Of a DNA stretch of 64,000 nt, positions 346-51,371 are shown in pieces. Numbering within the stretch: the stretch's first letter is position 1; every line of letters starts with the position of its first letter. A program made the position numbers and the translations under genes. The notes under the pieces are model-generated. The model had not been told where the DNA came from. It worked only from the letters and a program-made list of their open reading frames with translations, and did not search any database. The stretch spans positions 139,262 through 203,261 of the forward strand of contig CAVVKJ010000014.1 in assembly GCA_963748815.1 (NCBI GenBank). The letters are read 5' to 3'. The stretch comes from an uncultured Gemmatimonadales bacterium (GTDB lineage: Bacteria > Gemmatimonadota > Gemmatimonadetes > Gemmatimonadales > GWC2-71-9).

Positions 346-422
346 GGGCCCTTAGCTCAGGTGGTTAGAGCAGCGGACTCATAATCCGTAGGTCCCTGGT
401 TCGAATCCAGGAGGGCCCACCA
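346..422 (+). tRNA. tRNA-Ile2 (anticodon CAT, lysidine type; tRNA-Met less likely)
   Basis: GGGCCCT acceptor stem, D-arm GCTCAGGTGGTTAGAGC, anticodon loop CTCATAA, T-loop GTTCGAATC, encoded CCA. Closely resembles ileX-type tRNAs. Confidence 0.93.
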
Positions 423-430
423 CTAGGGCG

Positions 431-517
431 GGGACTGAGAGTGAAGGACTGAGGACTGAGAGGGCGATCCCTCGACGTCCTCAGTCCTTTTCTCTTGGCT
501 CAGTCCTCAGTGCTCAC
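431..517. repeat. Inverted heptamer (GAGGACT/AGTCCTC) hairpin downstream of tRNA
   Basis: gtgaaggactgaggactgag (441-460) is complementary to ctcagtcctcagtgctcac (499-517). Confidence 0.7.
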
Positions 518-712
518 CTCCCCTCCGGATGCCTTCACCACACCCTCACATGCTTTTCACCCCCCGCCACCTAGCTTGGCTCGTGCAGGCAAGATTGTCA
601 GCCTTTGGCTGGCGCCCCGAGGAGGTTCCGGTATGGCAGCAGCAGTGAGGCGGCATGCTGCCAAGGGTTCTCGTCGGCACTCAACCTCCTCTTGATCGAA
701 TTGGAGCACTTC

Positions 713-1714
713 ATGTTGGATGGAAACGTCCATAAGGCTGTGACTATTGCTGCGGCCGTGTTGTCAATTCTTGGGGTCGGCTGCTCCCAAGACACGGTGG
801 TGGAACCGATCACCGGAGCGGCGACCGTCTCGGCGAGCGGCCAAGAGGGGCAAGTCGTCCTTGAACCTATGTGCAAACTCGGATGTATGGATGTAGACCC
901 GGACCCGGAGTCCCCGGGTGTCTTTCTTGGTAGCGGGGTAACTGACGAAGTGTGCTTCACCTCAGCTCAGACTGACAACGATGCGGACGGACTCTCCACC
1001 TTCTGCGAGAACAATCTCGCCATGGCGTTCGCGCCGGAGCTTCGGTACGCCTACGGCGACGAAGTAGGGCGCGAGCCATATTGGGCTGCTCGCCCTGGTT
1101 CCGGTGGAACCGTGGTCATCGCATACCTCATCGGCTATTATCGGGATGCGGGAAGTAGTGCCGGGGTCTGCAACCTGCCTCCGCCTCTATACGACCCTTC
1201 GTGCGACGGACACAATGGCGACTCCGAAACCATCCTTCTCGAAGTCTACTATGACTCGGATACACACCACTGGATTCTGAGTCAGGCTACTTACTCCCAA
1301 CACGAGAGCTACGGGATCTATTCCACCTCCTCAGGATCAGGGTTTAATTACCCCTACATGCTTGACTATCCAGGCCACCCTGGTGCCTACCCTAGGAGCT
1401 ATGTGTCTGAGGGGAAGCACGCCAACTATTCTTCCGAGATCGAATGTGAGGCTGGGGGAGGCTTCGCTGCTGATACTTGTGCTGGAGTAGACACTTCAGA
1501 GCGGCTCATTGTGAGCGGGGCATATAACGTCGGCAGCCATTCTGTACACCTGATTGACTGCGTCGGCAGCCGTGATTGGCACTATATCTACTACGGGAGT
1601 GGGCGTCTGGAGTGCTACTGGACGACTTCCAATTTCCGAGGATGGATTCCCACGTTCGTAGGTGGTGCGGAATCGAGCCCCTATCACAACCGCCTCATCT
1701 ATGGGGGATTCTAG
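713..1714 (+). CDS. Cys-rich lipoprotein with NPP1/Vps62-like motifs
   Basis: GGAG SD before ATG713, lipobox LGVGC, motifs GHNGDSE, YSQH and GKHANY. Confidence 0.7.
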   Translation: MLDGNVHKAVTIAAAVLSILGVGCSQDTVVEPITGAATVSASGQEGQVVLEPMCKLGCMDVDPDPESPGVFLGSGVTDEVCFTSAQTDNDADGLSTFCENNLAMAFAPELRYAYGDEVGREPYWAARPGSGGTVVIAYLIGYYRDAGSSAGVCNLPPPLYDPSCDGHNGDSETILLEVYYDSDTHHWILSQATYSQHESYGIYSTSSGSGFNYPYMLDYPGHPGAYPRSYVSEGKHANYSSEIECEAGGGFAADTCAGVDTSERLIVSGAYNVGSHSVHLIDCVGSRDWHYIYYGSGRLECYWTTSNFRGWIPTFVGGAESSPYHNRLIYGGF

Positions 1715-2076
1715 TGTTGGCCCGAGCGTTCCTTGGCCTCGCTTTGTGCAGCGTCCTCGCTGCTGGAACGGCTGAGGCGCAATCGGGCTCGCTCACAGCC
1801 GCGAGCCCTGTCTGGTCCGTCTCTCGCCCCACAGCGCAGCACCGTGTTCCCGAAATGAGGATGTCGGGGACCAGCAAGAGCTACTGGTTTGAAGGGTTGA
1901 TTGTCGGTGGGGTCGTATTCGGCGCGATGGGGGCAGCAATCGCGAGCTCAAACTGTTCCAATTCTGAACTGGCTGATTCCGGGAGCTGCGTGGACAACAC
2001 CCTACTTGGCGCCTTGGTTGGCGCTGCGATTGGTGCGGCTCCAGGGGCGTTGATCGGCGGGCTATTCCGGAAATAA
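1714..2076 (+). CDS. Secreted/membrane protein with C-terminal glycine-zipper helices
   Basis: GTG overlaps the upstream TAG (TAGTG). Signal peptide ending AEA|Q, GxxxG repeats (GALVGAAIGAAPGALIGG). Confidence 0.65.
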   Translation: MLARAFLGLALCSVLAAGTAEAQSGSLTAASPVWSVSRPTAQHRVPEMRMSGTSKSYWFEGLIVGGVVFGAMGAAIASSNCSNSELADSGSCVDNTLLGALVGAAIGAAPGALIGGLFRK

Positions 2077-2082
2077 GGCGAC

Positions 2083-2127
2083 CTCATAATCCGTAGGTCC
2101 CTGATTCGAATCCAGGAGGGCCCACCA
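2083..2127 (+). repeat. att-like copy of the tRNA-Ile2 3' half (anticodon loop to CCA)
   Basis: ctcataatccgtaggtccctgattcgaatccaggagggcccacca, 44/45 identical to 378-422. Confidence 0.92.
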
Positions 2128-2205
2128 ACGGGATGAGGACTGAGAGCAGAGGACTGAGGGCCGAGGGGGCCCCCCCCCGAGGCCATCAGTCCTTTATCTT
2201 GCTTG

Positions 2206-2279
2206 GTCCTCAGTCCTCAGTCCTCAGTCCTCAGTCCTCAGTCCTCAGTCCTCAGTCCTCAGTCCTCAGTCCTCAGTCC
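2206..2279. repeat. Perfect heptamer tandem repeat (GTCCTCA) x ~10.5
   Basis: Directly visible. Complementary GAGGACT copies lie at about 2135-2158. Confidence 0.95.
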
Positions 2280-2356
2280 GCCCCCCTTTCGGCCCCCCGC
2301 GGACCGCAGTATCCTGCAGATTGGTTCTTTCGCCATATCCATCGAGGAGTCCTCCC

Positions 2357-3190
2357 ATGACGAAGCGCACTATCAGGCTGCTGATGGCCCTGCTGACCAT
2401 CTCGGCCATTCCCGCGACGCTGACCGCCCAGGAAACCGTCAAGGTGGACGGCGTCATCGTGGCGCGCTCCGGCGCCGAAATGATCGTCCATCCGCAGGGC
2501 GCCACCGGGAATACCACCGTCACCCTCTCGAACGACACCAAGGTCGAGGTGAAGGGCGGGCCGCTCGGGGTCAAGAAGTCCTCGATGGGCCCCGCCACCC
2601 TGATTCCCGGCCTCAAGGTCGAGGTGCAGGGCACCCCGGGCGCCCACGGGGGCGTCGCGGCGACCAAGGTGGAATTCAGCTCGGGCGACCTCAAGACCGC
2701 CAACGAGATCCAGGCCGGGGTGAACCCGACGGCCGAGCTGGCGGACTCCAATGCGGCGGGGCTGGCGGAAAACAAGGCGGAGACCGACTCGCTCAGCAAG
2801 CGGTTCGGGCAGTTGGGTGACTACGACGTCATCGCGCAGGACACGGTGTATTTCGGGGTGAACAGCTCGGTGATCTATCCGGCCGGACAGCAGACGCTCA
2901 AGGCGTTCGCGGCCAAGGCGCAGGGGATGGCGTCCTATAACATCCTGGTGGCGGGGTATACCGACGCCTCGGGCAACGCGGAATACAACCAGCAGCTCAG
3001 CGAGCGGCGGGCCCAGGCCGTCATCGAGTACCTCGAGCAGAAGGCGGACATCCCGTTGTACCTCGTGCTCGCGCCGGCGGCGATGGGCTTTTCGCACCCG
3101 GCGGCTTCCAACGAGACCCAGGAGGGCGCGGCCAAGAACCGTCGCGTGGTGGCGTCCATCGTGGTCAACCGCGGCATCACCGGACAATAG
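2357..3190 (+). CDS. OmpA-family peptidoglycan-binding protein with N-terminal DUF5666-like domain
   Basis: GAGGAG SD, signal peptide, GYTDASG...NQQLSERRA and NRRV OmpA-C motifs. Confidence 0.85.
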   Translation: MTKRTIRLLMALLTISAIPATLTAQETVKVDGVIVARSGAEMIVHPQGATGNTTVTLSNDTKVEVKGGPLGVKKSSMGPATLIPGLKVEVQGTPGAHGGVAATKVEFSSGDLKTANEIQAGVNPTAELADSNAAGLAENKAETDSLSKRFGQLGDYDVIAQDTVYFGVNSSVIYPAGQQTLKAFAAKAQGMASYNILVAGYTDASGNAEYNQQLSERRAQAVIEYLEQKADIPLYLVLAPAAMGFSHPAASNETQEGAAKNRRVVASIVVNRGITGQ

Positions 3191-3202
3191 GAAGGCGAGA
3201 CG

Positions 3203-3403
3203 ATGAGTAGACGGATCGTGGCGGCCTCGGCCGCGATGGCCGGCACCGTGCTGGCCATCGGCACCGTTTCCACGCCGCTGCCATCCGGCTGCACCACCAA
3301 GCCTGCCAGCGGGGTCGAGTACTACCAGTGCGGACCGAACTGGTATCGCTCGGCGTTCCAGGGAAACACCCTCGTCTACGTGACCACCGAGGCGCCGAGC
3401 TGA
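3203..3403 (+). CDS. Small hypothetical protein (LPxGC...YYxCxxxWY motif, DUF6515-like)
   Basis: ORF directly after ompA with host-like codon usage. Confidence 0.5.
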   Translation: MSRRIVAASAAMAGTVLAIGTVSTPLPSGCTTKPASGVEYYQCGPNWYRSAFQGNTLVYVTTEAPS

Positions 3404-3422
3404 CCGGCCAGGGCCGCCGCGC

Positions 3423-3743
3423 ATGACAGGAGAGCGCCTCTCGGGCAGGCGGCTCGCGCTGGCATTTGCCATCGCGGCGGTGTCCGATGCGCTCTCGTTC
3501 GCGCTGGCACTTGCGCCGCCGCTGCAATGGGCGGCCGATGCCGGGACGGCGCTGCTGTTGTTCGCGATGCTGGGCTGGCAGTGGGTCCTGCTTCCGGGGC
3601 TCATCGTCGAGGCGATCCCTGGCCTGGCCGTCTTCCCTTTCTGGGTGCTGGTCGTGGGGGCGGTGGCGACGTGGGGACGGGTGCGGCCGCCGGCCAGCCG
3701 GACCCTCCCGCGCGAGGGCGGGGGCCAGACGCCCGAGCAGTAA
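3423..3743 (+). CDS. Small membrane protein
   Basis: Several hydrophobic segments (...LIVEAIPGLAVFPFWVLVV). Confidence 0.6.
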   Translation: MTGERLSGRRLALAFAIAAVSDALSFALALAPPLQWAADAGTALLLFAMLGWQWVLLPGLIVEAIPGLAVFPFWVLVVGAVATWGRVRPPASRTLPREGGGQTPEQ

Positions 3744-3889
3744 CAAGGCCCTGCGCCCGCTCCCCCGCCGATGCCGCGGGCGGCCGGCTCCATCCCATTG
3801 GCGCATTCCGATCAGGCGCGTAGCTTAGGTAGCATGCCACGTTCGTGCGATCCGCGATTCTCTCCCTCCCTCGTATTCTGAGTTCCCTC

Positions 3890-5518
3890 ATGACCGATCG
3901 TCGAGACTTCCTGAAGGCCGCCGGCGTCACCGCCGCGGCCCTCGCCTCGGACGGCCTCCTCCGGGGCGCCTTCGCGTCCCCGTCGGCCGCCGCACCGTCG
4001 TCCACCGTCGGGCCGACCATGGACCCGGCCACGAGGGATCTCCTCATGGAGGCGCTCAACGCCGCGAAACGGGCCGGTGCCAGCTACGCCGACGTCCGCA
4101 TCGGGCGGCAGCGCAGCAGCTTCATCAGCACGCGGGAAGACCACATTCAGTTTTCCGCGGAAAACGACACGCTGGGCGCCGGGGTGCGGGCGCTGGTGGA
4201 CGGCACCTGGGGCTTTGCCGCGACCAAGACCCTCAACAAGGAGGGGGTGGCGGGTGCGGCCCGTGAGGCGGTGGCCATTGCCAAGGCGGATCGGATCGCC
4301 CGCGGCCAGCCGGTCGAGCTCTGGCCGTCGCCGTCGTATCCCGATGTCAGCTGGCAAAGCGTCTATGAAATCGACCCCTTCACCATCTCCCTCGAGGAGA
4401 AGGTCGACCTGCTGCTTCGGGCCAACGCCGAGGCGATGAAGGTGCCCAACGTCAAGTTCGCCTCCAGCTCCATCTCGATGGTGAAGGATGAGCGGAACTA
4501 CGCCAACACCGACGGGTCGGTCATTGCGCAGCAGTTCTTCCGAATCGCGCCGAACCTCACGGCCACGGCCGTGGCCCCGGACCGCTCCGATTTCCAGTCG
4601 CGGTCCTCGCAGGTTCCGCCGGCGAGCCGCGGATGGGAGTATGTGCTGTCCGCCGACCTGGTCGGCAATGCCCAGCAGTGGGGCGAGGAGGCGGCGCAGA
4701 AGCTGACCGCCAAGCCGGTGGAGGTCGGCCGGTACGACCTGATCCTGCATCCGACGCACCTCTGGCTCACCATCCACGAATCGATCGGGCACCCGACCGA
4801 GCTCGACCGCGCGATGGGCTACGAGGCCAACTACGCCGGCACCAGCTTCGTGGCGCCGCCCAAGTCGGTGCTCGGCAAGCTCAAGTATGGCCCGGAGTTC
4901 ATGAACATCCAGGGCGACCGGTCGCAGGAGGGCGGACTGGCCACCATCGGCTGGGACGACGAGGGGGTCAAGCCGAACGACTTCCTGATCATCAAGCACG
5001 GTGTCATGAACGACTACCAGACCACCCGCGAGCAGGCCGGCTGGCTCAAGTGGTGGTACGACGAGCAGGGTATCCCGACCCGCTCGCACGGCTGTTCCTA
5101 CGCCCAGAACTGGGGCAGCGTCCAGTTCCAGCGGATGCCCAATATTTCACTCCTGCCCGGGGCCGACGAGCGTTCCTGGGAGGACATCATCGCCGCCACC
5201 GACCGGGGCATCGCCATCATGGGCGACGGGTCGTTCTCCATCGACCAGCAGCGCTACAACGCCCAGTTCGGCGGCCAGGTGTTCTACGAGGTCCGGGGCG
5301 GCAAGATTGTCGGCATGATGAAGGACGTCGCCTACCAGATCCGCACGCCGGATTTCTGGAACTCGATGGACATGATCGGCGGGAAGTCGAGCTACATGCT
5401 GGGTGGCGCCCTGAACGACGGGAAGGGACAGCCCGGGCAGAGCAACGCAGTGAGCCATGGCTGTGTGCCCGCTCGCTTCCGGCAGGTGAACGTGATCAAC
5501 ACCGGGAGGACGGCATGA
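3890..5518 (+). CDS. tldD: TldD/PmbA-family metalloprotease (catalytic subunit) with Tat signal
   Basis: MTDRRDFLK twin-arginine motif, HESIGH zinc motif, C-terminal SHGC. Confidence 0.88.
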   Translation: MTDRRDFLKAAGVTAAALASDGLLRGAFASPSAAAPSSTVGPTMDPATRDLLMEALNAAKRAGASYADVRIGRQRSSFISTREDHIQFSAENDTLGAGVRALVDGTWGFAATKTLNKEGVAGAAREAVAIAKADRIARGQPVELWPSPSYPDVSWQSVYEIDPFTISLEEKVDLLLRANAEAMKVPNVKFASSSISMVKDERNYANTDGSVIAQQFFRIAPNLTATAVAPDRSDFQSRSSQVPPASRGWEYVLSADLVGNAQQWGEEAAQKLTAKPVEVGRYDLILHPTHLWLTIHESIGHPTELDRAMGYEANYAGTSFVAPPKSVLGKLKYGPEFMNIQGDRSQEGGLATIGWDDEGVKPNDFLIIKHGVMNDYQTTREQAGWLKWWYDEQGIPTRSHGCSYAQNWGSVQFQRMPNISLLPGADERSWEDIIAATDRGIAIMGDGSFSIDQQRYNAQFGGQVFYEVRGGKIVGMMKDVAYQIRTPDFWNSMDMIGGKSSYMLGGALNDGKGQPGQSNAVSHGCVPARFRQVNVINTGRTA

Positions 5519-6854
5519 GCGACGTCGTGATGTCTCGCGCGGACGCCCAGGCGCTCCTGGAGCGCGTCATGGGCTTTTCGAAGGCCGAGCGGGTCCAGGT
5601 GAGCCTCAACAGCTTCCGCACGGCGAACACCCGGTTTGCGGCCAACCAGCTCTCCACGGCAGGCACGGTGGACGACGCCGGCGTCTCGATCCAGAGCTGG
5701 TATGGCTCCAAGCACGCCGCGGCCCGCACCAACGACCTGTCGGACGCGTCGCTGCGCGCGGCGGTGGCGCTGTCGGAGGCGCAGGCCCGCCTCGCCCCCG
5801 AGGACCCGGAAGACATGCCGCTGCTCGGACCCCAGACCTACGTCCCCGTCATGTCCTGGTTCGATTCCACTGCGGAGCTTACCGCCGGGGGCCGCGCGCA
5901 GGCGGCGCTGACGGCCCTCGAGGTGACCCGCGCGTCGCGCGACCTGCTCGCCTCGGGATTCCTCGAGACCAGGGCCAGCGCCACGGCCCTGGCGAACAGC
6001 GCCGGGCTCTTTGCGTATGATCGCACCACGTCGGCCAACTACACGTTGACCGTGCGGACCACCGATGGCACCGGCTCCGGTTGGGCGGGAGCCGACAACC
6101 CCGACTGGTCGAAGCTGGATTTCCGTTCGGTGAGCACCAGGGCCATCGACAAGGCGCGCGCCTCCCGCGATCCGGTGGCCATCGAGCCGGGCCGCTACAC
6201 CGCCATCCTGGAGCCGCAGGCCGTCGGCGACCTGACCCAGCTCATGCTCTTCGCCCTGTCGGCCCGTTCGGCGGACGAGGGCCGGAGTCCCTTCGCGAAG
6301 GAGGGCGGCGGCAACAAGATCGGCGAGAAGATTCTCGACGAGCGCATCAGCATGATCTCCGATCCGCAGGATCCCATCCTGCTGGCCCGACCCTTCGACG
6401 GCGAGGGGCTGCCGCTCGGCCGCCAGGTGTGGGTCGAGAACGGGGTGCTGAAGGCGCTGAACTACTCCCGCTACTGGGCCAAGAAGTCCGGGAATACGCC
6501 CACCGGCGGCCCGAGTTCCTGCCTGGTGCCCGGTGGCACCACCTCGGTGGACGAGATGATCGCCCAGACGGAGCGTGGCGTGCTGTTGACCCGGCTCTGG
6601 TACCTGCGGCAGGTGGATCCGCGCACGATCCTGTACACTGGGCTCACGCGGGACGGCACCTTCCTGATCGAGAACGGGAAGATCAGCAAGGCGATCCGGA
6701 ACTTCCGGTTCAACGAGTCGCCGCTGTTCATGCTCAACAAGGTGGACGCGATGGGGCCGGCCCAGCGACTGGCCGGCACCGAATCGGGAGGCGACGTCGC
6801 GATGCCCGCCCTCAAGGTGCGCGACTTCAACTTCACGAGCCTGTCGGAGGCCGT

Positions 6855-6858
<4 letters not shown>
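5515..6858 (+). CDS. TldE/PmbA-family partner subunit
   Basis: ATGA overlap with tldD. TRFAANQ, LEPQAV, PFDGEG and TGLTRDG motifs, no HExxxH. Confidence 0.85.
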
Positions 6859-7844
<986 letters not shown>

Positions 7845-7845
7845 G

Positions 7846-8724
7846 GTGCCGGCATCGAGCCTCCGAAGCTACGGCCCCCTCCTCGACGCGTTGGCCGGCC
7901 TCTCCTGGCCCGCGCGGCGTCCGGTCGGCGCCGGCGCCGCCGGGAGCCACCCCTCCCGGCTCCGCGGGATGGCTGCCGACTTCACCGAGTATCGCCCCTA
8001 TCGCTTCGGCGATGATCCGCGGCGGCTGGACTGGAAGCTCCTGGCCCGGACCGATCGCGCCTACCTCCGTCTGACCGACGACAACGCCACGCGCTCCACC
8101 CTCATCCTGGTCGATGGGTCGGCCTCGCTCGCCTTCCCATCGGACACCCTTTCCAAATGGACGCAGGCCTGCCGCCTCGCGGTGGGGCTCGCCTCCGTGG
8201 CGCGCAACGACGGCGATCCGGCAGGGTTGGTCGTCTCGCACGAGCGCCGCCCTGTTCGCCTGGTCCCGCGGGCCCGGTCCGGCGCCATTCCGGAAATGGC
8301 GCGGGCGCTCCAGGCCCTCACGCCGGAGGGTTCCGCGCGCCTGGGCCCCGCGCTGGAACAGGTGCGCGCCGGCTGGCGGCTGGTGCTGATCTCCGATTTC
8401 CTGGGTGACGAGGTGGAGCTGCTTCCGCTGGTGCGGCAACGCATCGTGGCCGGGGCGGAAGTCTTCGCCGTGCAGATCGTTGCGGACGAGGAGCTGCAGC
8501 CCCCGGAGGCCACCCGCCTCGCGGTGGATCCGGAACGCCCTGCGGTCCGGCATGTGCTGCAGGCCGGTGTGCACCGCGAGTACGCCGAACGCTTTGCCGC
8601 CTGGCGCGCCACGCTGCGGAGCGAGTGGCGGCACGCGGGCGCGGAATTCACCGAGGTGCGCGCCGAGGAGGATTCCGCCCGCGCCATCCGGCGGATCGTG
8701 GCCGGTGCGGAGGGCTCGCCGTGA
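7846..8724 (+). CDS. DUF58-domain protein
   Basis: FTEYRPY...GDDPRRLDWK, DGSASL and LISDF motifs. Follows MoxR. Confidence 0.85.
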   Translation: MPASSLRSYGPLLDALAGLSWPARRPVGAGAAGSHPSRLRGMAADFTEYRPYRFGDDPRRLDWKLLARTDRAYLRLTDDNATRSTLILVDGSASLAFPSDTLSKWTQACRLAVGLASVARNDGDPAGLVVSHERRPVRLVPRARSGAIPEMARALQALTPEGSARLGPALEQVRAGWRLVLISDFLGDEVELLPLVRQRIVAGAEVFAVQIVADEELQPPEATRLAVDPERPAVRHVLQAGVHREYAERFAAWRATLRSEWRHAGAEFTEVRAEEDSARAIRRIVAGAEGSP

Positions 8725-11992: not shown

Positions 11993-12600
11993 GCGAATTC
12001 GTCTTCGCCACCGCGCAGTACGAATCAGGCGACTGGGACTCCGCGCCCCTCCTGCCGGCCAACATCATTGACTCGCTGGCCCGCTACACCTCGCTGGCGC
12101 TGGCGCCGCAGGGGGTGGTGGTGCCGCTCGCATCGAGTGAGCTCTTCCGCTATCCGCTGGTGTACCTCACCGGGCACCTGCCTCTCCGGTTCAGCGAGCA
12201 GGAGCGGCGCAACCTGCGCGCCTTCGTGGACCGGGGTGGCATGCTCTTCGTGGACGACCACAACCACGACATCGACGGGGTGTTTCACCAGACGGCGACG
12301 GAGGAGATCGGCCGGACCGTCGGCCCGCTGGTTGAATTGCCCAACGATCACCCCCTTTACTCGGCGTATTTCCAGTTTCCGGACGGACCGCCGGCCACCA
12401 GCCAGGAGCTGAACGGCTGGGGAGACAACCTGGTGCACCCCCACCTGCTGGCGGTCCAGCGCGGCGGCCGGATCGCGGTGCTCTACAGCAGCAAGGATTA
12501 CAGCTCGGAGTGGGACTACCACGCCGAGACCAAGCGATTCTACTCGGTGGACAACACACGGTTCGCGGTCAACGTGGTGGTGTATGCGCTTACCCGCTGA
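11989..12600 (+). CDS. DUF4159-domain protein
   Basis: YESGDWD, YLTGH, GGMLFVDD, SSKDYSSEW, VNVVVYALT. Confidence 0.85.
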   Translation: MSEFVFATAQYESGDWDSAPLLPANIIDSLARYTSLALAPQGVVVPLASSELFRYPLVYLTGHLPLRFSEQERRNLRAFVDRGGMLFVDDHNHDIDGVFHQTATEEIGRTVGPLVELPNDHPLYSAYFQFPDGPPATSQELNGWGDNLVHPHLLAVQRGGRIAVLYSSKDYSSEWDYHAETKRFYSVDNTRFAVNVVVYALTR

Positions 12601-13858
12601 TCGACGGAGCCTGGAGTGGGCGCTGCGGGCCGGCGCCCTGGTGGCGCTGGGGTGGTTGATGGTGCTCGCCTTGCAGCCGGCGCAGCCCGCCGGGCGGGCG
12701 GCGGTGGACGTCGCCGACTGGGAAACCGCCCGTGCCGACTGGGCCTGGTATCCGCGGGCGGATTCGCTGGTGTTCGCGCTGGACGCCGCGCCTGTTCCCT
12801 TCGTCCGGGACTGGCTGGTGGCGCTCCGGCGGTCGGGCACCACGGTGATGTGGGAAAATGGTGGGATCCCGGCGATCGCCCTGGAGGTCGAGCCGAGGCG
12901 AGACCCGGCCGGTGGCGTGCTGGTGCGGATCTCGGGTCCACGGGGCGCAATGGTTCCGCTTGCCGACGAGGTCGGCGTGCTCGACACGCTTGCGGTTGGC
13001 GCCGAGGGAGGTGCGACGGTGCGGCTGCCCCCGGTGGTGGGGCCTGTGAGTGCATCGATTGGCGGGACGGCGGCGTCGAGAGGTGGCGACACCTCCACCG
13101 CCATCCGCCGACTTCTCCTGCTGGGGTCGGCGGGATGGGAGGCGCGGTTCATTGCGGCGGCGCTGGAGGAGCGGGGGTGGATCGTGGACGCGCGGTATGC
13201 CGTGGCACCCGGCATCGACGTGTTGCAGGGCAATCCGCTTCCGCTCGACACGGCCTCCCACGCGGCGGTGATCGTGCTCGACTCGAGCGCCGACCGATAC
13301 GCCGGCCAGGTGGCGGGGTTCGTGCGGTCGGGGGGCGGCCTGGTGCTGGCGGGTGACGTCGGCGCGTCGTTCCGGCGGTTGGCGCCGGGGGTGGGGGGCG
13401 GGCCGGTGCGACATGCCGCCGCGATCACCTTCGAACAGGGCGACCCGCGCCGCGCGCTCTCCTATGTCGAGATCCAGTCCCTGGCTCCCGATGCGGTGAC
13501 ACTGGAGTCCCGGGATGGGGGCGCGGTCGTCGCGGCGCGGCGGGTGGGTGCCGGCCGAGTCGTCCAGGTGGGCTACCGCGAGAGCTGGCGCTGGCGAATG
13601 CAGGGCGGGGAAGGGTCGGTGGCGGCGCACCGATCCTGGTGGGCCGACCTGGTGGCCGGCGTGGCGTACGCGCCCGCCGCCCCGGACCAGCCGGGGGAGC
13701 CCGCACCGTTGGCGAGTCTTGTCGAGGCGATCGGGCCGGCCACCACGCTGCCCCCCGCACAGACCCCGCCCTTGCCCCTCTACCCGTGGCTGGTGGCGGT
13801 GCTGGGCCTCGGTCTGCTGCTTGAGTGGTCGTCGAGGAGGTTGCGGGGGGCGCGGTAG
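12584..13858 (+). CDS. Membrane-anchored hypothetical protein (GATase-like fold, end of MoxR operon)
   Basis: N- and C-terminal TM segments, GAGRV...ESWRWRM...HRSWW, LLLEW. Confidence 0.65.
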   Translation: MRLPADRRSLEWALRAGALVALGWLMVLALQPAQPAGRAAVDVADWETARADWAWYPRADSLVFALDAAPVPFVRDWLVALRRSGTTVMWENGGIPAIALEVEPRRDPAGGVLVRISGPRGAMVPLADEVGVLDTLAVGAEGGATVRLPPVVGPVSASIGGTAASRGGDTSTAIRRLLLLGSAGWEARFIAAALEERGWIVDARYAVAPGIDVLQGNPLPLDTASHAAVIVLDSSADRYAGQVAGFVRSGGGLVLAGDVGASFRRLAPGVGGGPVRHAAAITFEQGDPRRALSYVEIQSLAPDAVTLESRDGGAVVAARRVGAGRVVQVGYRESWRWRMQGGEGSVAAHRSWWADLVAGVAYAPAAPDQPGEPAPLASLVEAIGPATTLPPAQTPPLPLYPWLVAVLGLGLLLEWSSRRLRGAR

Positions 13859-14008
13859 GGCTGGCTGCCTTCCCGGAGTTGTCTGCGAGATGTAGACTGG
13901 ATCGAGGGGGGTGGGTCTCTGCGCTCGGCTTCACGTTGGCCGTTGCGAGGTAGTCGTCGATTTGCGACAGCCCATCGCTCCCCCTCAACTCGGAGTAGAC
14001 GCGCCGCC

Positions 14009-14569
14009 GTGGGCAATCTGACCTTCAGCATCAACGTCACCCTCGACGGGTGCGTCGACCACCGGGTGGGTATCGCGGACGAGGAGACGCACGCTCTCTT
14101 CACCCGCCTCATGGACGAGAGCGGGGCGATGCTCTGGGGCCGCGTCACGTACGAGATGATGGAAAGCTACTGGCCGGCGGTCGCCCGTGGCGACGAGGAG
14201 GTGCCGCCAGCGCTGCGCGAGTGGGCGGTCAAACTCGAGGCGAAGCCGAAGTACGTCGTGTCGTCGACGCGAGCGAACTTCCCGTGGACCAACAGCCACC
14301 ACATCGCCGGCGACCTGCGCACGGGCGTGCAGAAGCTGAAGGACGCGACCCCGGCCGGCATCCTCCTCGGCAGCGGCAGGCTCGCGACCGAGCTGGACCG
14401 GCTCGATCTGATCGACGAGTACAAGTTCCTTGTCCACCCCCGGATCGCCGGCCACGGCCCGACCCTGTACCAGGGCGGACTGCCCAGCACGCGACAACTC
14501 GCACTCGTCTCGGCGGCGCCGCTCCGCAGCGGCGCGGTCGCGCTGCACTACCGACGCGCGCGCGGCTAG
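14009..14569 (+). CDS. Dihydrofolate reductase/RibD C-terminal family protein
   Basis: INVTLDGC, LWGRVTYEMM, LIDEYKFLVHP. Confidence 0.88.
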   Translation: MGNLTFSINVTLDGCVDHRVGIADEETHALFTRLMDESGAMLWGRVTYEMMESYWPAVARGDEEVPPALREWAVKLEAKPKYVVSSTRANFPWTNSHHIAGDLRTGVQKLKDATPAGILLGSGRLATELDRLDLIDEYKFLVHPRIAGHGPTLYQGGLPSTRQLALVSAAPLRSGAVALHYRRARG

Positions 14570-14697
14570 CGACCGGCTGGAGCATGCGCTCGCGAGCCCC
14601 CTCCCAGCGGAGGCGCCAGGGGGGGCTGGTGGACGGGGAGTGCTCTCGCTGCGTGTCCTGTGTGTCGATTACCGTCATCCGCCTGGGAGAAGATCCC

Positions 14698-15093
14698 ATG
14701 GGTGCACAGTCCCCGAGGACCCATTTCGCAACGGCCACCGCCCTGGTACTGACCGGGCTGTGCGCCGGCACGGGCTGTGGTCTCTCGCCGGAGAATTGTA
14801 CCGCCGACTTTCGCTATGGACTCACCGTGCAGGTGCGCGATTCCGTCACAGGGGCTCCTGCCGGTCATGATGCCCTCGTGATCGCCCGGGACGGCGCGTA
14901 TGCCGATACCCTTTCGTCCTTCCCCTTCAGCTCGGATTCGGTAACGTTTGTGGGGGCGGGGGAGCGGCCGGGCCGGTATGTGGTCACCGTCTCGAAGCCA
15001 GGTTATCAACTCTGGGTTCGCGATGGGGTGGAGGTCGGAGAGGATGGCTGCCACGTCCAGCAGGTCGCCATTACCGCGTTGCTCCAGCAGTAG
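14698..15093 (+). CDS. Lipoprotein with carboxypeptidase-regulatory-like beta-sandwich domain
   Basis: GGAG SD, signal ending GTGC, VQVRDSVTG...GRYVVTVSKPGY. Confidence 0.65.
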   Translation: MGAQSPRTHFATATALVLTGLCAGTGCGLSPENCTADFRYGLTVQVRDSVTGAPAGHDALVIARDGAYADTLSSFPFSSDSVTFVGAGERPGRYVVTVSKPGYQLWVRDGVEVGEDGCHVQQVAITALLQQ

Positions 15094-15337
15094 CGCCGGA
15101 CGGTTCAGGCTCGCTCGAGCTGTGCCGTCAGCCAGGGGCAATCAGGGGAGCCGCGCCACGCCGGCGCCCCATTGGGCGATGGGCCGCCTGTTCAGCACTT
15201 GCATCAGGCGAGTGCGCCCGCCAAGGGCGGCGAACGCCCTCGCCCCTGATGCGCGGTTCGTTCGTTCGTTCGGCCGCGCCACCGCCAAGACATCCGCCCT
15301 CCCATCCAACGAGGCTGTTGGCGCACTGGAGTCGACC

Positions 15338-16090
15338 ATGCCGATCGAGATTGGGCGCATTGAGGCGATCTTCCGCTATCCGGTGAAGTCCATGCGCGGC
15401 GAACGACGTGAGACCGCGACACTGGGCTGGCACGGCCTCGACGGGGACAGACGGCTGGCTTTTCGGCGGATCAACGACACCAGCGCCTTCCCCTGGCTGA
15501 CGGCGGGCAAGCTTCCGAGTCTACTGCTCTATGCGCCTCACCGTGACGGCGATGGTGCGGAAGCCGATCTGCCCACGCATGTCCGCACGCCGAGCGGCAC
15601 CGAGATGGCCGTCTTCGGCGAAGCCCTGGCCACAGAGGTCGGCGGCCTCCATGGCGCACCTGTCCACATGATGCAGCTCAAGCATGGAATCTTTGATGAA
15701 GCCAGTGTCTCCGTAATCACCCCGGACACGGTTGACGAGATCGCACGACTCTCCGGACGGCCTGCGGACATGCGACGGTTTCGCCCAAACATCGTGGTGC
15801 GCCCCGCGCGCTCGGTGCCATTCCAGGAGGATGCGTGGGTTGGCGGCGTCCTCTCCTTCGGAGAGGGCGGCGAAGGTCCCGCCATCTGTGTCACAACACG
15901 AGATGTGCGCTGCTCGATGGTCAACCTCGATCCCGACTCGGCACAGTCTGCACCGGAAGTCCTCCGGACAATCGTTCGGGTGACTCAGAACAACGCGGGC
16001 GTCTACGGCACCGTCACTCGCATCGGCGGACTGGCAGTCGGACAGCCTGTCCTCCTCCATGCTGGCGCCCGGAAAGGGCGCACGACCTGA
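15338..16090 (+). CDS. MOSC-domain protein
   Basis: RYPVKSM, GDRRLA, RRFRPNIV, RCSMV. Confidence 0.88.
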   Translation: MPIEIGRIEAIFRYPVKSMRGERRETATLGWHGLDGDRRLAFRRINDTSAFPWLTAGKLPSLLLYAPHRDGDGAEADLPTHVRTPSGTEMAVFGEALATEVGGLHGAPVHMMQLKHGIFDEASVSVITPDTVDEIARLSGRPADMRRFRPNIVVRPARSVPFQEDAWVGGVLSFGEGGEGPAICVTTRDVRCSMVNLDPDSAQSAPEVLRTIVRVTQNNAGVYGTVTRIGGLAVGQPVLLHAGARKGRTT

Positions 16091-16145
16091 CCCGCGCGTC
16101 CAGCTGCCGCGAGTGCCGTCGCCGCTGATGCCCCATTCGCTAGAC
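16085..16145 (+). repeat. Degenerate attC-like palindrome
   Basis: ACCTGAC-5-CGTCCAGC...GCTGATG-8-GCTAGAC. Both R boxes are one mismatch from consensus. Confidence 0.4.
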
Positions 16146-16173
16146 CGACATTCAGAAATGTGAGCGAGAAGAG

Positions 16174-16812
16174 ATGAGCAAGGTCTTTGTGAACATCGGA
16201 CTGAGTCTCGACGGGTACATGGCGCCGGAAGGGATGGCCATCGAGCATTGGGATCGACCCGAGTACAAGAACTGGGGCGCCAAGTGGGGCGCGCTGATGG
16301 GCTGGGTCCTCAAACAGCAATATTTCCGCGAGAACCTGAAGTTCGGCCCGGGAGGAGAGACCGGCCCGGTCAACGATATGCTCCGTCACACGATGGAGCG
16401 CAGCGGCGCGAGCATCATGGGCAAGCGAATGTTTGACGCAGGCGAGCGCAGCTGGCCCGAGGAAGCGCCGTTTCACACTCCGGTGTACGTGCTCACCCAC
16501 GAGAAGCGCGAGCCATGGGTCCGGCCGGGCGGGACGACGTTCTATTTCGTCAACGATGGGACAGCGAGTGCCCTGGAGACCGCCCGGAAGTCGGCCGGCG
16601 GGCGGGACGTCCGCATCTCGGGCGGAGCGGATGTGATTCAGCAGTACTTGAACATGGGTGTCGTCGATGAACTGGAAATTGCCCTGGCGCCGGTGCTATT
16701 TGGCAGTGGAAGACGCCTCTTCGAGAACCTGCACGAGGCCGTGCCGCAGTTCCGGATCGACCAGGTGCTCAATACGCCGGATGCGACACACCTGCGCTAT
16801 GTGCGTGCGTAG
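16174..16812 (+). CDS. Dihydrofolate reductase/RibD C-terminal family protein
   Basis: LSLDGYMA, IMGKRMF, GGADVIQQYL, VDELEIALAPVLFGSG. Confidence 0.88.
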   Translation: MSKVFVNIGLSLDGYMAPEGMAIEHWDRPEYKNWGAKWGALMGWVLKQQYFRENLKFGPGGETGPVNDMLRHTMERSGASIMGKRMFDAGERSWPEEAPFHTPVYVLTHEKREPWVRPGGTTFYFVNDGTASALETARKSAGGRDVRISGGADVIQQYLNMGVVDELEIALAPVLFGSGRRLFENLHEAVPQFRIDQVLNTPDATHLRYVRA

Positions 16813-16890
16813 AGGCGGCTGAACACCACGTGGGAGGTGAGGTGTTTCCCCCCTCCACCTCCTCCAGCAGCATGGAAGGAGCATTCCACC

Positions 16891-17553
16891 ATGCAGGACA
16901 CCTGGTCCCGTGTCGATCGCTACGCGGGGGATCTTCTCTTCCCGGCCGACACGATCCTGGAGGCCGCGCTCGAGGCGTCTACTGCCGCGGGGTTGCCTGC
17001 GATTGCCGTCTCCCCCGCCCAGGGCCAGTTCCTCGCGCTGCTGGTGCAGGCGCTCGGCGCCCGCCGCGTGCTGGAGCTGGGGACGCTCGGTGGATACAGC
17101 ACGATCTGGATGGGACGCGCCCTTCCGCCTGGCGGCCATCTCCTCACCCTCGAACTCGACCCCGCGCATGCGGCCGTCGCCAAGGCCAATCTGGCGCGGG
17201 CGGGGCTGGCCGATGTCGTCACCGTGCGGGTCGGGCCGGCCGCCGAGACGCTCCGCCAGCTCGCCAGGGTTGGCGAAGCGCCCTTTGATCTTGTCTTCAT
17301 CGATGCCGACAAGACGGGGTATCCTGACTACCTCGAACTGATTCTTCCCCTTGTCCAAAGGGGGAGCCTCATCATCGCCGACAATGTGGTGCGGGGTGGC
17401 GCCATCACGGATGCAAGCAGTACGGACCCGAATGTCCAGGCCGTCCGCCGATATCTCGAAATGGTGGCGGCGCACCCCCGCCTCAGCGCCACGGTGCTCC
17501 AGACGGTGGGGAGCAAGGGGTACGACGGACTGGCGCTTGCCGTCGTGCTCTAG
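16891..17553 (+). CDS. SAM-dependent O-methyltransferase (Methyltransf_3)
   Basis: AAGGAG SD, LELGTLGGYS, FIDADK, IIADNV. Confidence 0.9.
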   Translation: MQDTWSRVDRYAGDLLFPADTILEAALEASTAAGLPAIAVSPAQGQFLALLVQALGARRVLELGTLGGYSTIWMGRALPPGGHLLTLELDPAHAAVAKANLARAGLADVVTVRVGPAAETLRQLARVGEAPFDLVFIDADKTGYPDYLELILPLVQRGSLIIADNVVRGGAITDASSTDPNVQAVRRYLEMVAAHPRLSATVLQTVGSKGYDGLALAVVL

Positions 17554-17592
17554 GTCGCGCGTCGGCCATATCGGTTGGAGTGACGGCGGGCG

Positions 17593-18354
17593 TCAATCGG
17601 GCGGCCGGAGGACGAGGTTTCGGAAATCGCCGACCGAAGTCCCGTGCACAAAGTACCCGACGCCGCCGGAACGATGCGAGGAGGGATTGATCACCGAGAG
17701 CACCGGGGTCTCGTTCCGGTCCAGGTAGACCACGACCGCCGCCCCGCGCACCCGCACCCGAACGTGGATCCACGCGGTGGGGTCGAGCGAAGGCGGGACC
17801 GCCTGCTCGAAGCCCCCGGGCGCCTCGGTTCGCAAGCGGTCCCACGGATACGCGGGGGACGAGACGAACTGCACGGCGTGGGCTCGGCGCGCGGAGTCCG
17901 CCGCCCGGAAATTGAAGGGGCGGAGGTAGACCGCATCGAAGCTGGTGTCGCTGGTAATGTGAAACGCGATGCCCACGAAGCTGTGCCCCGGGATGTCCCG
18001 GCCGCGGACGTCGAATTCGATGTCACCGTCGGTGAACGCCAGCGCCGGAGACCAGACCAGCCCGACGGTATCCGGCTCCCCGACGATCGCCAGGTACTCG
18101 CCTCCACCATCGCGCTGGATGTCGATCGTCCGGCTGAACAGCCGCCACCCCCCAGGGGGCGCTTCGGCGCCGGCGAGGCTGACTGGCAGGGTGCCTTGCG
18201 CGCTCCCACTGGCGGGCAGGAGGACCGAAGCGAACGCGCCAAGGATGAACTGAGCCACGACCAGCGGTGGGAGCGCCTGGACTCGCGTGGTGGACTCCTG
18301 CGTGCGGAGACGGACGACGGCGGCCGTTGGTATCCGGACGTCGACCGACGGCAA
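17593..18354 (-). CDS. Secreted hypothetical protein, DUF1080-like jelly-roll (start uncertain)
   Basis: GDIEFDVRG, FVGIAFH, YLRPFNF, WIHVRVRV. Confidence 0.6.
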   Translation of the reverse strand: MPSVDVRIPTAAVVRLRTQESTTRVQALPPLVVAQFILGAFASVLLPASGSAQGTLPVSLAGAEAPPGGWRLFSRTIDIQRDGGGEYLAIVGEPDTVGLVWSPALAFTDGDIEFDVRGRDIPGHSFVGIAFHITSDTSFDAVYLRPFNFRAADSARRAHAVQFVSSPAYPWDRLRTEAPGGFEQAVPPSLDPTAWIHVRVRVRGAAVVVYLDRNETPVLSVINPSSHRSGGVGYFVHGTSVGDFRNLVLRPPD

Positions 18355-18437
18355 GAGGTTTCGTCTGCCGCCGAGGGCCGGGAGACGAAATCGCGGGCTG
18401 ACGCATCTACCTCGAAATTCTCTCCCGGAGCCGATTC

Positions 18438-19598
18438 GTGAACTGCGTACCCTCCCGAGCCAGTGCCGCCCTGGTGCTCACCCTCCTGGCAGGGTGTGGC
18501 GGCGATCGCCCTGATGCCGGCGGAACCACGATCGTCGACTCCGCCGGGGTCGAACTGGCCGTCGCGGCCGCCGTCGACCAGCCCCTGGGGTGGACGCTGA
18601 CCGAACGCTTCCGTCTCGGTGGGGCCGACGACGGACCGGGCAGCTTCACGTCGGCGAGCATGTGGAACACTGGTACTGACCGGGAAGGCAGGATCTACGT
18701 GCTCGATGGTCAGCAGTTCCGGGTGGAGGTGTTCGCGCCTTCCGGGGAGCACCTTCGCTTTCTCGGTCGGAAGGGGGGCGGGCCGGGGGAAATTGAGTTT
18801 CCCATCTCGCTCTTCGTCAGCCCGGCCGGGGTGGCCCAGGTCTTCGACGCCGGAAAGCTGGCGCTCGTGCGCTGGGACGCCAACGGTGAGCTGTTGCCGC
18901 CAATCTCCCTGCAGGGAAGCGCCCCCCGGTTTCCCATCGCCTATGGGGACACGCTGATTCTCGGCCTGAACGAGGGGGCTGACACCCTGAGGACCACCCG
19001 GCTGGTGACCATCGTGGGCGGCGACACCACGACCATCACGTCGTTCACGACGCCGACCGGCGCGATGGCCGAGTTCTCCTGCGTGAGTTTCGTCCAACCG
19101 CCGGTGTTCTCACCCACCCTGCAGTGGACCACGAATGGGCGTGCGGTGGCCACGACCCGCCAGGCGTCCTATCAGGTGGACGTGTACGACGGCGCCAGTC
19201 TGGTCCGGAGCATCCGGCGGTCAATTCCCTCGAGGCCGACGTCGGTAGACGACGTGAAGCGCCTCTATCCGAACGGGATGGAAGTGCATTTCGGCGGTGG
19301 GAGAGGATGCACGATTCCCGCGCACGAGATCATGGAAAAGCAGGGAGTCGCCCCCATGGTGCCACAAATCCGCTCGCTGCGATTCGACCCCCAGGACCGA
19401 TTGTGGGTGGAGCGGTACACCTTCGCCGATGAGCCCGCGCTGGTCGACCTGTTTGACGCGAGTGGCCACTACCTCGGCTCGCTGTCCGGCAAGGGCCCCC
19501 CGGTCGGGTTCATCGGCACCGACGTGATCCTGTTCGCCCAGGAAGACGAGGATACCGGTGTGCGGCAGGTCGTGGCGTACCAGGTCACCGGCGGGTAA
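18438..19598 (+). CDS. 6-bladed beta-propeller lipoprotein
   Basis: GGAG SD, lipobox LAGC, GRIYVLD...GRKGGGPGE, DLFDASGHYLG. Confidence 0.8.
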   Translation: MNCVPSRASAALVLTLLAGCGGDRPDAGGTTIVDSAGVELAVAAAVDQPLGWTLTERFRLGGADDGPGSFTSASMWNTGTDREGRIYVLDGQQFRVEVFAPSGEHLRFLGRKGGGPGEIEFPISLFVSPAGVAQVFDAGKLALVRWDANGELLPPISLQGSAPRFPIAYGDTLILGLNEGADTLRTTRLVTIVGGDTTTITSFTTPTGAMAEFSCVSFVQPPVFSPTLQWTTNGRAVATTRQASYQVDVYDGASLVRSIRRSIPSRPTSVDDVKRLYPNGMEVHFGGGRGCTIPAHEIMEKQGVAPMVPQIRSLRFDPQDRLWVERYTFADEPALVDLFDASGHYLGSLSGKGPPVGFIGTDVILFAQEDEDTGVRQVVAYQVTGG

Positions 19599-19683
19599 CA
19601 CCGGCGGCTCCCGGCTTCCCAGGTGTGGGAAACACGACACCCCGCGCAAGCCGGCTGGCTGGGCGGGGTGCTTGTCGTGTGCA

Positions 19684-19702
19684 ATGGGCGATGAGGGCTC
19701 GA
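19684..19702 (-). repeat. att-like copy of the tRNA-Val 3' end (T-loop to discriminator)
   Basis: atgggcgatgagggctcga versus atgggcgatgaggggctcga at 20470-20489 (one G missing). Confidence 0.75.
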
Positions 19703-19799
19703 CGAAAAGCGCCCTGGGCATCGATAGGCGGGCGTACCGAGTGTCTATCGCATGGACGCCGTGTCGGGGCCGGAGGGTCCGGGTCCGCCCGGAGGATTC

Positions 19800-20394
19800 G
19801 CGGTGTGCTTGAGGGCCCGAGTTCCCCGTGCAACTGACCGTTCCAAACGGGTTCCCTGCCGATGCTGGTGCCGCTCTTGGTCGAAGGCAACGACGCACCG
19901 TCCGTCCGGGGAGCGCGTGACCGTCGCGGCGGCGGACCAGGCCGTCGTGGTGGCGCTCAGGAAGGTGACCGTCACCTCGTCGGAGGCGCGGAAAGCCCAG
20001 CTCCTCGATATCACTGGTGTAGCTGTTGCTGTCCGCGTAGAAGTTGTCTTCGGCGTAGGCGAGCCTGTCCAGGTCGTCGTGCGCTCGGTACATCCGGTGC
20101 TTCGCCCGGCCCTCGGACCCCATCGCCAAGGGATGGCTGCGTAGGCCGTTGATCCCAGCGCGACAAGAATCGGCGACCAGGCCACGGCCAGGGACATAGG
20201 TGCTTCCGGCGCACGAACAGGACGACCGTGGCAGCGAGCCAGAGGATCACCACTCCGAGCGCAACGAGGGCCAGGGTGCCACCGGATCGGCCCGTGAAGA
20301 ATATCACGCCACCGAACCCGAGGAACACAAACCCCCATATGAGGGTGAGGAAGACTGCGACAGTGCCCAGCACCGCAATGACGGCTCGTTGCAT
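19800..20394 (-). pseudogene. Frameshifted membrane protein with pilin-like C-terminal domain
   Basis: GAGGAG SD. Consecutive pieces in different frames: MQRAVIAV..., APMSLAV..., HDDLDRLAYAEDNFYADSNSY, FRASDEVTV...WSAAAT...RCVV. 3' end approximate. Confidence 0.5.
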
Positions 20395-20470
20395 GAGTTC
20401 TCCTCGGGGGTGACACGACGAACGCCCCGCTCAGTCCTCGAGGGCCAAGCGGGGCAAGTAGTTGCACTGA

Positions 20471-20544
20471 TGGGCGATGAGGGGCTCGAACCCCCGACCT
20501 CGCGCATGTGAGGCGCGCGCTCTAACCAGCTGAGCTAATCGCCC
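20471..20544 (-). tRNA. tRNA-Val (CAC), CCA not encoded
   Basis: Reverse complement GGGCGATTAGCTCAGCTGGTTAGAGCGCGCGCCTCACATGCGCGAGGTCGGGGGTTCGAGCCCCTCATCGCCCA, followed by TCA. Confidence 0.93.
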
Positions 20545-30463: not shown

Positions 30464-30803
30464 CTGCATCTTCTGCCGGATCGCCGGGGGAGAGATCCCC
30501 GCCCAGGTCGTCGGCCGGACCGAGGAGGTGGTCGCCTTTCGCGACCTCAACCCCCAGGCTCCCGTCCACGTGCTCGTGATACCGGTCCGGCACCACACCG
30601 CCGCCCGGGATGCAAAGGGGCCGGAGGGGGAACGGCTTCTCGGGCGGCTGCTGGCGTTCGCTGCGGAGACGGCAACCTCTCTCGGCCTCGATGCCGGGGG
30701 CTACCGGGTCGTGACCAACACCGGCAAGGACGGCGGCCAGAGCGTGGACCATCTGCACCTGCACATCCTCGGGGGCCGCCCCCTCGGCTGGCCTCCGGGA
30801 TAG
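30456..30803 (+). CDS. Histidine triad nucleotide-binding protein
   Basis: CIFCRI, HLHLHIL, WPPG. Confidence 0.95.
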   Translation: MADCIFCRIAGGEIPAQVVGRTEEVVAFRDLNPQAPVHVLVIPVRHHTAARDAKGPEGERLLGRLLAFAAETATSLGLDAGGYRVVTNTGKDGGQSVDHLHLHILGGRPLGWPPG

Positions 30804-30885
30804 GGGGCCCCCAGTCCTCAGTCCTCCTTTCCCCTTCCTCCTTCCGCCCCTCCAAGTCCCAAGTCCCTTTCTCCTTCCTCCGCTC

Positions 30886-30914
30886 TTGCCCCCCGCCCGA
30901 TCCCCGTCTATGTT
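30886..30914 (+). promoter_or_regulatory. Probable sigma70 promoter of the rpsU operon
   Basis: TTGCCC-17-TATGTT. Confidence 0.5.
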
Positions 30915-30969
30915 TAATGACTGCATAACATTACCGCCCTGACACGGGCTGGAGAGGGGTGATTTGCTG

Positions 30970-51330: not shown

Positions 51331-51371
51331 AACCAACGCGTGGCGGTTCCGCCGCCGCGCTGGAGATACTC

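Follow-up and report, generated by a model that had tools for sequence, protein, structure and literature searches.

Two small integrase-free islets behind tRNA genes of an uncultured Gemmatimonadales bacterium: probable separate origins and spread by homologous recombination

Introduction

How does an accessory gene come to lie between an intact tRNA gene and a displaced copy of the 3' end of the same tRNA, when no recombinase is encoded around it? This question is raised by a 64-kb stretch of DNA (hereafter, the window) of an uncultured Gemmatimonadales bacterium, in which tRNA-Ile2 and tRNA-Val are each followed by a small islet of this structure. A reading made from the sequence alone (the sequence-only reading) had taken the two islets for examples of one system of tRNA-anchored, integrase-free, single-cargo cassettes. 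On comparison with related genomes, we favor, with a probability of roughly 60%, the interpretation that they are two small accessory islets, neither of them self-mobile and probably of two origins, the Ile2 islet being an additive insertion made without an integrase and the Val islet a scar of attachment (att) sites, and that both spread by homologous recombination.

The window is part of contig C14 of the genome G000 (assembly 86% complete). The relatives were drawn from the same genus (17 genomes searched) and from the wider family, and are designated likewise (G001 and so on); X1, X2, X3, and X4 are sequencing runs, used as contigs only. The tRNA genes were called by ARAGORN and the domains by Pfam.

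Results

Structure of the two islets

The features of the two islets and of their immediate surroundings are as follows.

346..422, + strand: intact tRNA with CAT anticodon (tRNA call), labeled Ile2 by elimination against two other CAT tRNAs in the genome
344..2625, + strand: tract near-identical to species G001 (2 substitutions and one array-length change), reaching into ompA
423..520, + strand: proximal hairpin, terminator-like, member of a genome-wide heptamer repeat family (folding, repeat search)
713..1714, + strand: cargo gene 1 (333 aa), with Cys at the end of the signal peptide; weakly similar to Vps62/NPP1(NLP)
1714..2076, + strand: cargo gene 2 (about 120 aa), for an envelope protein with a glycine zipper (Pfam below cut-off), accompanying gene 1 in relatives
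2083..2127, + strand: displaced 45-nt copy of the tRNA-Ile2 3' part from the anticodon loop, 6 nt past the cargo stop codon
2128..2278, + strand: distal hairpin, again of the heptamer repeat family, with an array of 10 heptamer units (folding, repeat search)
2357..3190, + strand: OmpA-domain gene, directly behind the tRNA in empty-site relatives
20471..20544, - strand: intact tRNA-Val(CAC) (tRNA call)
20416..20470, - strand: proximal Val hairpin; together with the tRNA, 121 nt matching the left end of the integrase element of G004 at 96.7% identity
19745..20394, - strand: Val cargo, encoding a membrane protein that has 215 aa in G001 and G002; five indels in G000 relative to the intact gene of G001
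19684..19702, - strand: displaced 3' fragment of tRNA-Val, with its start one base inside the T-loop
19631..19683, - strand: distal Val hairpin, a flank joined straight to the intact tRNA in X1

The presence of two tRNA genes in the window was borne out. A third call by ARAGORN, tRNA-Pro at 41566-41641, was rejected: it lacks the T-loop and lies within the coding sequence of a SpoIIE-domain gene, so that these two are the only tRNAs of the window. The displaced copies were likewise confirmed at the expected spacings of about 1.7 and 0.8 kb. The Ile2 copy (2083-2127, 1 mismatch) lies 1661 nt downstream and opens with the first anticodon-loop base. The Val copy (19702-19684), which lacks one base and matches the other 19 of 20 nt, lies 769 nt downstream and begins one base into the T-loop. 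Both are in accord with the anticodon-loop and T-loop starts proposed at first. The Val fragment was matched in none of 300 shuffles of the 20-kb interval and occurs at only two places in the genome, and thus is not a product of chance. The inserts, 1.66 kb (Ile2) and 0.77 kb (Val), contain no other mobile element.

The claim that no recombinase is encoded in the 64 kb also stood up. A genome profile search gave no match to PF00589 on contig C14 and none to PF00239 or PF07508 in the whole of G000; no resolvase was found in G000, and large serine recombinases were found in none of the 17 genus genomes. Neither a recombinase nor a transposase was identified by Pfam among the scanned window proteins, which beyond 21.6 kb comprise 31 of the 49 called open reading frames (ORFs).

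The Ile2 cargo consists of two genes, which qualifies the description as single-cargo. For cargo gene 1, no Pfam match was obtained. Atlas gave scores of 0.91 for Vps62 and 0.88 for NPP1 with low recognition, and the top rows of a Foldseek search were NLP structures with E-values of 0.025 or worse, none reaching E <=0.001; the structure model itself is middling (predicted local distance difference test, pLDDT, 61). For the Val cargo, likeness to pilins is a weak lead. A contig in X3 is free of two of the five indels of the Val cargo, and these indels together with the missing base of the repeat may be assembly errors. Core genes are split elsewhere on the contigs of G000, and the fragmented core genes at window 50700-61000 and a split XerC-like gene at G000:C5:386886-387412 suggest assembly indel errors.

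Homologous hairpins at both islets, as originally described, were found only in part. All four flanks of the islets fold into hairpins; the Val pair shares the stem only, and the Ile2 pair belongs to the heptamer repeat with 47 dimers genome-wide, the proximal member being 88% like the hairpin after transfer-messenger RNA (tmRNA). A role of the Ile2 hairpin as part of a dedicated recombination site was rejected, because duplication of a generic repeat says little about such a site. The proximal Val hairpin contains what we take to be an integration host factor (IHF)-like motif. The repeat of this genome that we presume to be attC-like was not seen in the islet sequences, as judged without an attC model.

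Transfer of a filled Ile2 allele between species

The Ile2 site is empty, in the order tRNA, hairpin, and ompA, in five relatives (G002, G005, G006, G008, and G014), and the duplication is present in two of the 14 genus genomes with a matching tRNA pattern among the 17 searched. The islet is contained in contigs of X1, X2, and X4 with zero differences. In the 2.6 kb that end with the tRNA, G000 and G001 are 66-94% identical per 200 nt; within 344-2625 only two positions differ, and beyond this tract the identity drops to 92-93%. The shared tract ends inside ompA, 500 nt past the repeat. Since site-specific excision would stop at the repeat, this overrun suggests replacement through flanking homology, pointing to movement of the filled allele between the two species by homologous recombination and not by att excision. 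The same overrun does not agree with the proposal that the recombination site includes the hairpin.

An alternative is that both islets are cis- or trans-mobilized minimal elements, that is, att-flanked derivatives moved by the integrase of a helper element. A sign of this at Ile2 is the start of the repeat exactly at the anticodon loop, which is the signature of an integrase. Two att copies in G175 start at the same point; one of them bounds a 9.8-kb segment with an integrase-like C-terminal piece, for which no Pfam match was found. In view of this common start, the original Ile2 scar may have been made by an integrase. The 500-nt overrun is not expected of such a helper, and among the joints listed for the four runs (contigs) there was no convincing empty-site or circle joint of Ile2. 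Joints 465-2250 in X2 and X4, with sides of 21 nt and 10 extra letters, were treated as repeat artefacts. No integrative parent element of the Ile2 islet was found among the genomes compared.

The Ile2 cargo family at non-tRNA sites

Cargo gene 1 is patchy in distribution, being present in 16 of 121 family genomes, mostly together with its partner gene and mostly distant from tRNAs. Among 80 related loci, 68 with sufficient flank were examined for flanking repeats at a threshold of 40 bits, with 298 genes, all from G000, as the control set. A flanking direct repeat was detected at 16 of the 68 cargo loci and at 12 of the 298 control genes (inverted repeats at three of the 68), the p value of 2e-6 being an overstatement because the genomes are kin and the controls come from a single genome. 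At about nine of the 16 repeat-flanked loci the repeat duplicates a site of the host, which is the 3' end of a protein gene at six loci, a terminator at two, and a tRNA end at one. The sole tRNA-end case is the twin of the Ile2 islet in the window. In an earlier test of 17 loci, six exceeded all shuffles, and three further cases came from it.

The recurrence of this cargo at protein-gene ends and terminators indicates that the Ile2 cargo is not anchored to tRNA, and the idea of one tRNA-anchored architecture was not supported. It also argues against a helper integrase, because the repeats at these sites are of unrelated host sequence. The two loci tested, L114 and L145, are empty in relatives, and the differences between the copies at L114, L128, and L145 are all synonymous (4 of 4). 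A metagenome scan yielded six distant loci with no donor state; the five examined had neither tRNA nor repeat.

The gap between HIT and rpsU (window 30800-30970) is empty here, and in G008 it holds a homologue of the Ile2 cargo pair, inserted within a palindromic repeat with a 15-nt duplication.

Descent of the two copies at duplicated gene ends

A total of 573 short-range repeats were found in G000, of which 20 are near-unique. The 20 include the repeats at tRNA-Leu(TAA) and tRNA-Pro(TGG) described below and the duplicated 3' ends of three protein genes, each with an integrase-free insert behind it: 41 nt for priA, 49 nt for cysS (both gene names being putative), and 155 nt for a 734-aa gene. 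The priA site is precisely empty in G001, G002, and G014, and in G003 the cargo is present without the duplication. At its stop codon, the in-gene copy agrees with G003 and G008, and the displaced copy with the empty genomes. For the 734-aa gene, G008 has the cargo without the duplication, G002 lacks the cargo, and the flanks of the copies sort likewise. Since the in-gene copies resemble the genomes with cargo but no duplication and the displaced copies resemble the empty genomes, this favors an incoming DNA on which part of the locus was already present.

This descent bears on a further explanation, to which we assign a very low probability, that of a true target-site duplication, in which a break in the recipient is repaired with foreign DNA and both copies derive from recipient sequence. 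The variable length of the repeats (about 20 to 155 nt) and the perfect Leu repeat over 51 nt (see below) are in line with it, and DNA breakage was suggested by Furuta et al. for restriction-modification inserts in the accessible part of their report (PMC2853133). The two copies, however, often match different lineages, as in the stop codons and flanks at priA and the flanks at the 734-aa gene, and the two Ile2 hairpins begin like G014/G005 and like G002, respectively. In addition, the copy differences at L114, L128, and L145 are exclusively synonymous (5 synonymous and 7 non-synonymous at the 734-aa gene), and the cargo encodes no nuclease.

The same pattern at other tRNAs, as anticipated, was found in a third small islet.

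G000:C10:9562-11306: tRNA-Leu(TAA) islet L029, with a gene for a 497-aa beta-propeller lipoprotein-like protein and a perfect 51-nt copy

The Leu islet is empty in G005, G010, and G014, and in G008 a 32-kb integrase element occupies tRNA-Leu(TAA).

At L192 (G000:C10:419714-421595), the 5' half of tRNA-Pro(TGG) (56 nt) is duplicated, together with 14 nt of leader, 1.7 kb upstream around one 440-aa gene, a mirror image of the att arrangement; in G001, the same junction surrounds 6.9 kb of different cargo. L196 (G000:C9:90034-92028) is a repeat of 327 nt inside a gene of 1641 aa; its differences are mostly synonymous, and it was set aside as what we take to be an Rhs-type orphan module. An integrase that is presumably integron-like lies beside an array of about 130-nt repeats, presumably attC-like, at G000:C8:43000-51300 (L199), and a second array that we assume to be attC-like, with no integrase match nearby, lies at G000:C10:175257-188118.

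The Val islet and integrase elements at the same tRNA

The Val cargo is 93.5-95.5% identical among G000, G001, G002, and G014 (detected in G002 and G014 by DNA comparison), compared with 84.8-92.0% for the adjacent core gene; G014 is without the distal Val copy. Of the 151 family genomes sampled, only G000 and G001 yielded protein homologues, and thus the Val cargo offers no test at other loci. In X1, of which the listed contigs show 0-7 differences per kb from the window (99-100% alike), position 19697 is joined directly to the intact tRNA-Val and the cargo is almost uncovered. The islets are accordingly variable, as had been expected, Ile2 being empty in five genus relatives and Val in a near-identical population.

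Tyrosine-integrase elements are present at tRNA-Val in G004 (7.4 kb) and G020 (12.6 kb), with att copies of 43-48 nt. These copies start at the anticodon arm, and the Val copy of G000 starts in the T-loop. The element of G004 has the proximal hairpin of G000 but not its cargo, and the Val islet of G000 shares only the left end with this element. In G005, a 0.69-kb Val islet retains both ends of the G004 element, and in G001 a second layer of 10.7 kb, integrase-free and att-delimited, is present at Val. The history of Val is thus the familiar picture of decay and accretion. The G020 element (L057:2959-14577), with an integrase, an AAA_25 protein, and a 1072-aa gene, looks satellite-like.

The same set of elements provides the support for movement by a helper integrase. 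Integrase elements occur at Val (G004, G020), at Leu (G008), and at Met and Ala (G000); the 103-nt right end kept by the G005 islet is 81.6% like that of G004; and cis-mobilizable elements (CIMEs) and accretion are described in the accessible parts of PMC5704250 and PMC3146451, to which the second layer of G001 may be added. On the other side, the Val islet of G000 has no match to the right end of G004, and the closest integrase in G000 is only 33-35% identical to that of G004. The supposed mobilization in trans was not supported, since no close helper integrase was found in this genome, within its 86% completeness, and taken together with the Ile2 evidence this explanation appears unlikely. 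Integrase islands at these tRNAs in relatives, which if they contained the present segments would make the islets simple deletion remnants, do exist but are without these cargo genes, so that this objection holds only by half.

Fragments starting at one T-loop base

One and the same T-loop base is the start of fragments at Val, Met, Ser, and Ile(GAT); the 11 examined (Val, Met, and Ile(GAT)) all begin there. The full 7-mer of a GNA-loop mini-hairpin lies within 14 nt at five of the 11 junctions, against a background of 1.2%, and the Val junction of the window is without the full motif. In G005, G008, and G001, a GC-rich insert of 13-42 nt splits a longer att copy at that base, and in G113 the insert, about 0.7 kb, encodes a GIY-YIG protein. 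Since the same base recurs and is split by inserts, the start point at Val may be secondary and not an integrase crossover. The position of these starts near mini-hairpins is a feature left unexplained by the interpretation that we favor.

One way to account for it is a small hairpin element, possibly served by a GIY-YIG nuclease, that targets the T-loop between its first two bases, makes or splits 3' copies, and can carry cargo. The common start base, the excess of mini-hairpins, and the inserts just described are what such an element would leave; the break of the G012 duplication (below) falls at the same place, and no large serine recombinase was found in the 17 genus genomes. The nuclease, however, is present in one case only, with no close homologue found in G000, and the Val junction of the window itself misses the full motif. 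Three of the 11 fragments share one origin and the junctions were chosen by start position. Moreover, the Ile2, Leu, and protein-gene cases are left unexplained, and recombinases are known to insert at the T-loop (accessible part of PMC3146451). The probability of this explanation is considered low. A broader conjecture, of rather low probability, is that Gemmatimonadales have an undescribed recombinase-free route of gene addition, active at gene ends rich in hairpins, in which a small GNA-hairpin element would cut the fixed T-loop base, with a GIY-YIG nuclease as a possible helper, and short locus-tagged circles would bring one or two envelope genes to tRNA, terminator, and protein-gene ends.

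The 0.84-kb Val islet of G113 (L232:1519-2415) contains the GIY-YIG gene and palindromic repeats, and both tRNA end and terminator are duplicated. A literature search for GIY-YIG with palindromic repeats found no relevant report, which does not imply absence from print. In G012 (L266:3074-3174), tRNA-Val has an internal tandem duplication with positions 1-54 joined to 29-75. At L030 (G000:C10:636709-643265), a 6.3-kb integrase element with an adenine methyltransferase at tRNA-Met is followed by two further T-loop fragments in tandem. At L031/L032 (G000:C17:59732-81338), a 21.5-kb segment after tRNA-Ile(GAT), with no recombinase match, ends in a 20-nt T-loop copy followed by the hairpin family found after Val.

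The variable zone between the two tRNAs

423..20470, no strand: variable zone between the convergent tRNAs, 0.2-20.5 kb across the genus

The 3' ends of the Ile2 and Val tRNAs are about 216 nt apart in G003 and G016, 1.5-14.4 kb apart in eight other genus genomes, and about 20 kb apart in G000 and G001. The two islets are the outer layers of this one zone. A TldD/PmbA pair and a MoxR-DUF58-BatA cluster (window 3890-13858) lie within it; they are present in G014 and G008, partly in G006, and absent from G001 and G002.

Discussion

Directly observed are the repeats, the alleles with and without the insert, the recurrence of this footprint outside tRNAs, and the tracts shared across species. Our proposal for Ile2 is that the incoming DNA would combine the cargo with a short segment of this locus from a related cell, and that host recombination would join it so as to push the resident tRNA end and terminator downstream. 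The joining step may be a single crossover of a small circle or homology-facilitated illegitimate recombination. The Val islet would be the scar of a tyrosine-integrase element that targeted tRNA-Val and was later stripped and refilled. Filled alleles would then spread between species through flanking homologous recombination, probably after uptake of DNA, presumably by transformation, and could be lost by recombination between the repeats. ComEC and DprA are encoded in G000. The suggestion of the sequence-only reading that surface-protein genes are swapped between strains fits, since the Val cargo differs between species and filled alleles move between species. The case for a new tRNA-specific mobile system is weak.

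Several observations weigh against this interpretation. Besides the kinship behind the repeat statistics, the att boundary in G175, and the match of the Val islet to the left end alone of the G004 element, 52 of the 68 cargo loci have no flanking repeat, and seven of the 16 positives resemble paralogous leaders or repeats. At L114, the copy that differs from relatives is the displaced one and not the in-gene one; the origin of the copies is thus not uniform, and the pattern fits a crossover inside the repeat. In no relative was an unduplicated tRNA-Ile2 found followed by the Ile2 cargo, and none of seven distant homologues of the Leu cargo has flanking repeats.

The mechanism of integrase-free insertion with long duplications is unsettled. 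At priA and the 734-aa gene, the empty, cargo-without-duplication, and filled states are found side by side in one genus, and at Ile2 there is a fresh cross-species tract with clear ends; models of donor homology and of break repair thereby become testable. Nor does the start of a tRNA 3' copy at the anticodon loop prove that an integrase moved the present allele.

Among known systems, the Ile2 islet is closest in form to insertion with long target duplication (Furuta, Abe and Kobayashi 2010, PMC2853133), in which, in the accessible part of the report, restriction-modification cargo was the screening criterion. Common to both are an insert below 20 kb, a repeat above 30 bp (45 nt at Ile2) that copies a unique site of the host, the absence of other mobile elements, an empty site in relatives, and repeats overlapping gene 3' ends. 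The cargo here consists of envelope genes instead of restriction-modification genes; the tRNA cases in that part of the report all have an integrase-like gene, unlike the Ile2 islet; and the Val repeat (19-20 nt) is shorter than the 30 bp of that class. According to the accessible text of PMC2884548, small variable segments have direct repeats at their flanks in 10-18% of cases.

The Val islet resembles CIMEs and tandem accretion at tRNA and tmRNA genes, as far as these are covered in the accessible parts of PMC5704250 and PMC3146451, in having att-like repeats without integration genes, tandem layers (G001), and integrase elements at the same tRNA in relatives. In contrast to CIMEs, the att-like sites of the islets and a descent from integrative and conjugative or integrative and mobilizable elements (ICE/IME) are only putative, and the Ile2 allele moved together with its flank. 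Partial tRNAs, degenerate remnants, and a tRNA-adjacent variable zone are shared with the tycheposon islands of Prochlorococcus, to judge from the accessible part of the report (bioRxiv 10.1101/2020.12.28.424599); an integrase is encoded there, whereas here the exchange of alleles through flanking homology is evident. Encoding no integrase of their own, the islets fall outside the integrative elements (IME, tycheposon, satellite). Finally, in the arrays of type VI secretion system (T6SS)/Rhs genes, for which homology-facilitated illegitimate recombination is proposed in the accessible part of PMC5361080, a homologous anchor with new cargo displaces the resident sequence downstream with no integrase, as would be the case at Ile2; that proposal was made for toxin-immunity arrays, and here a joining step of this kind is presumed.

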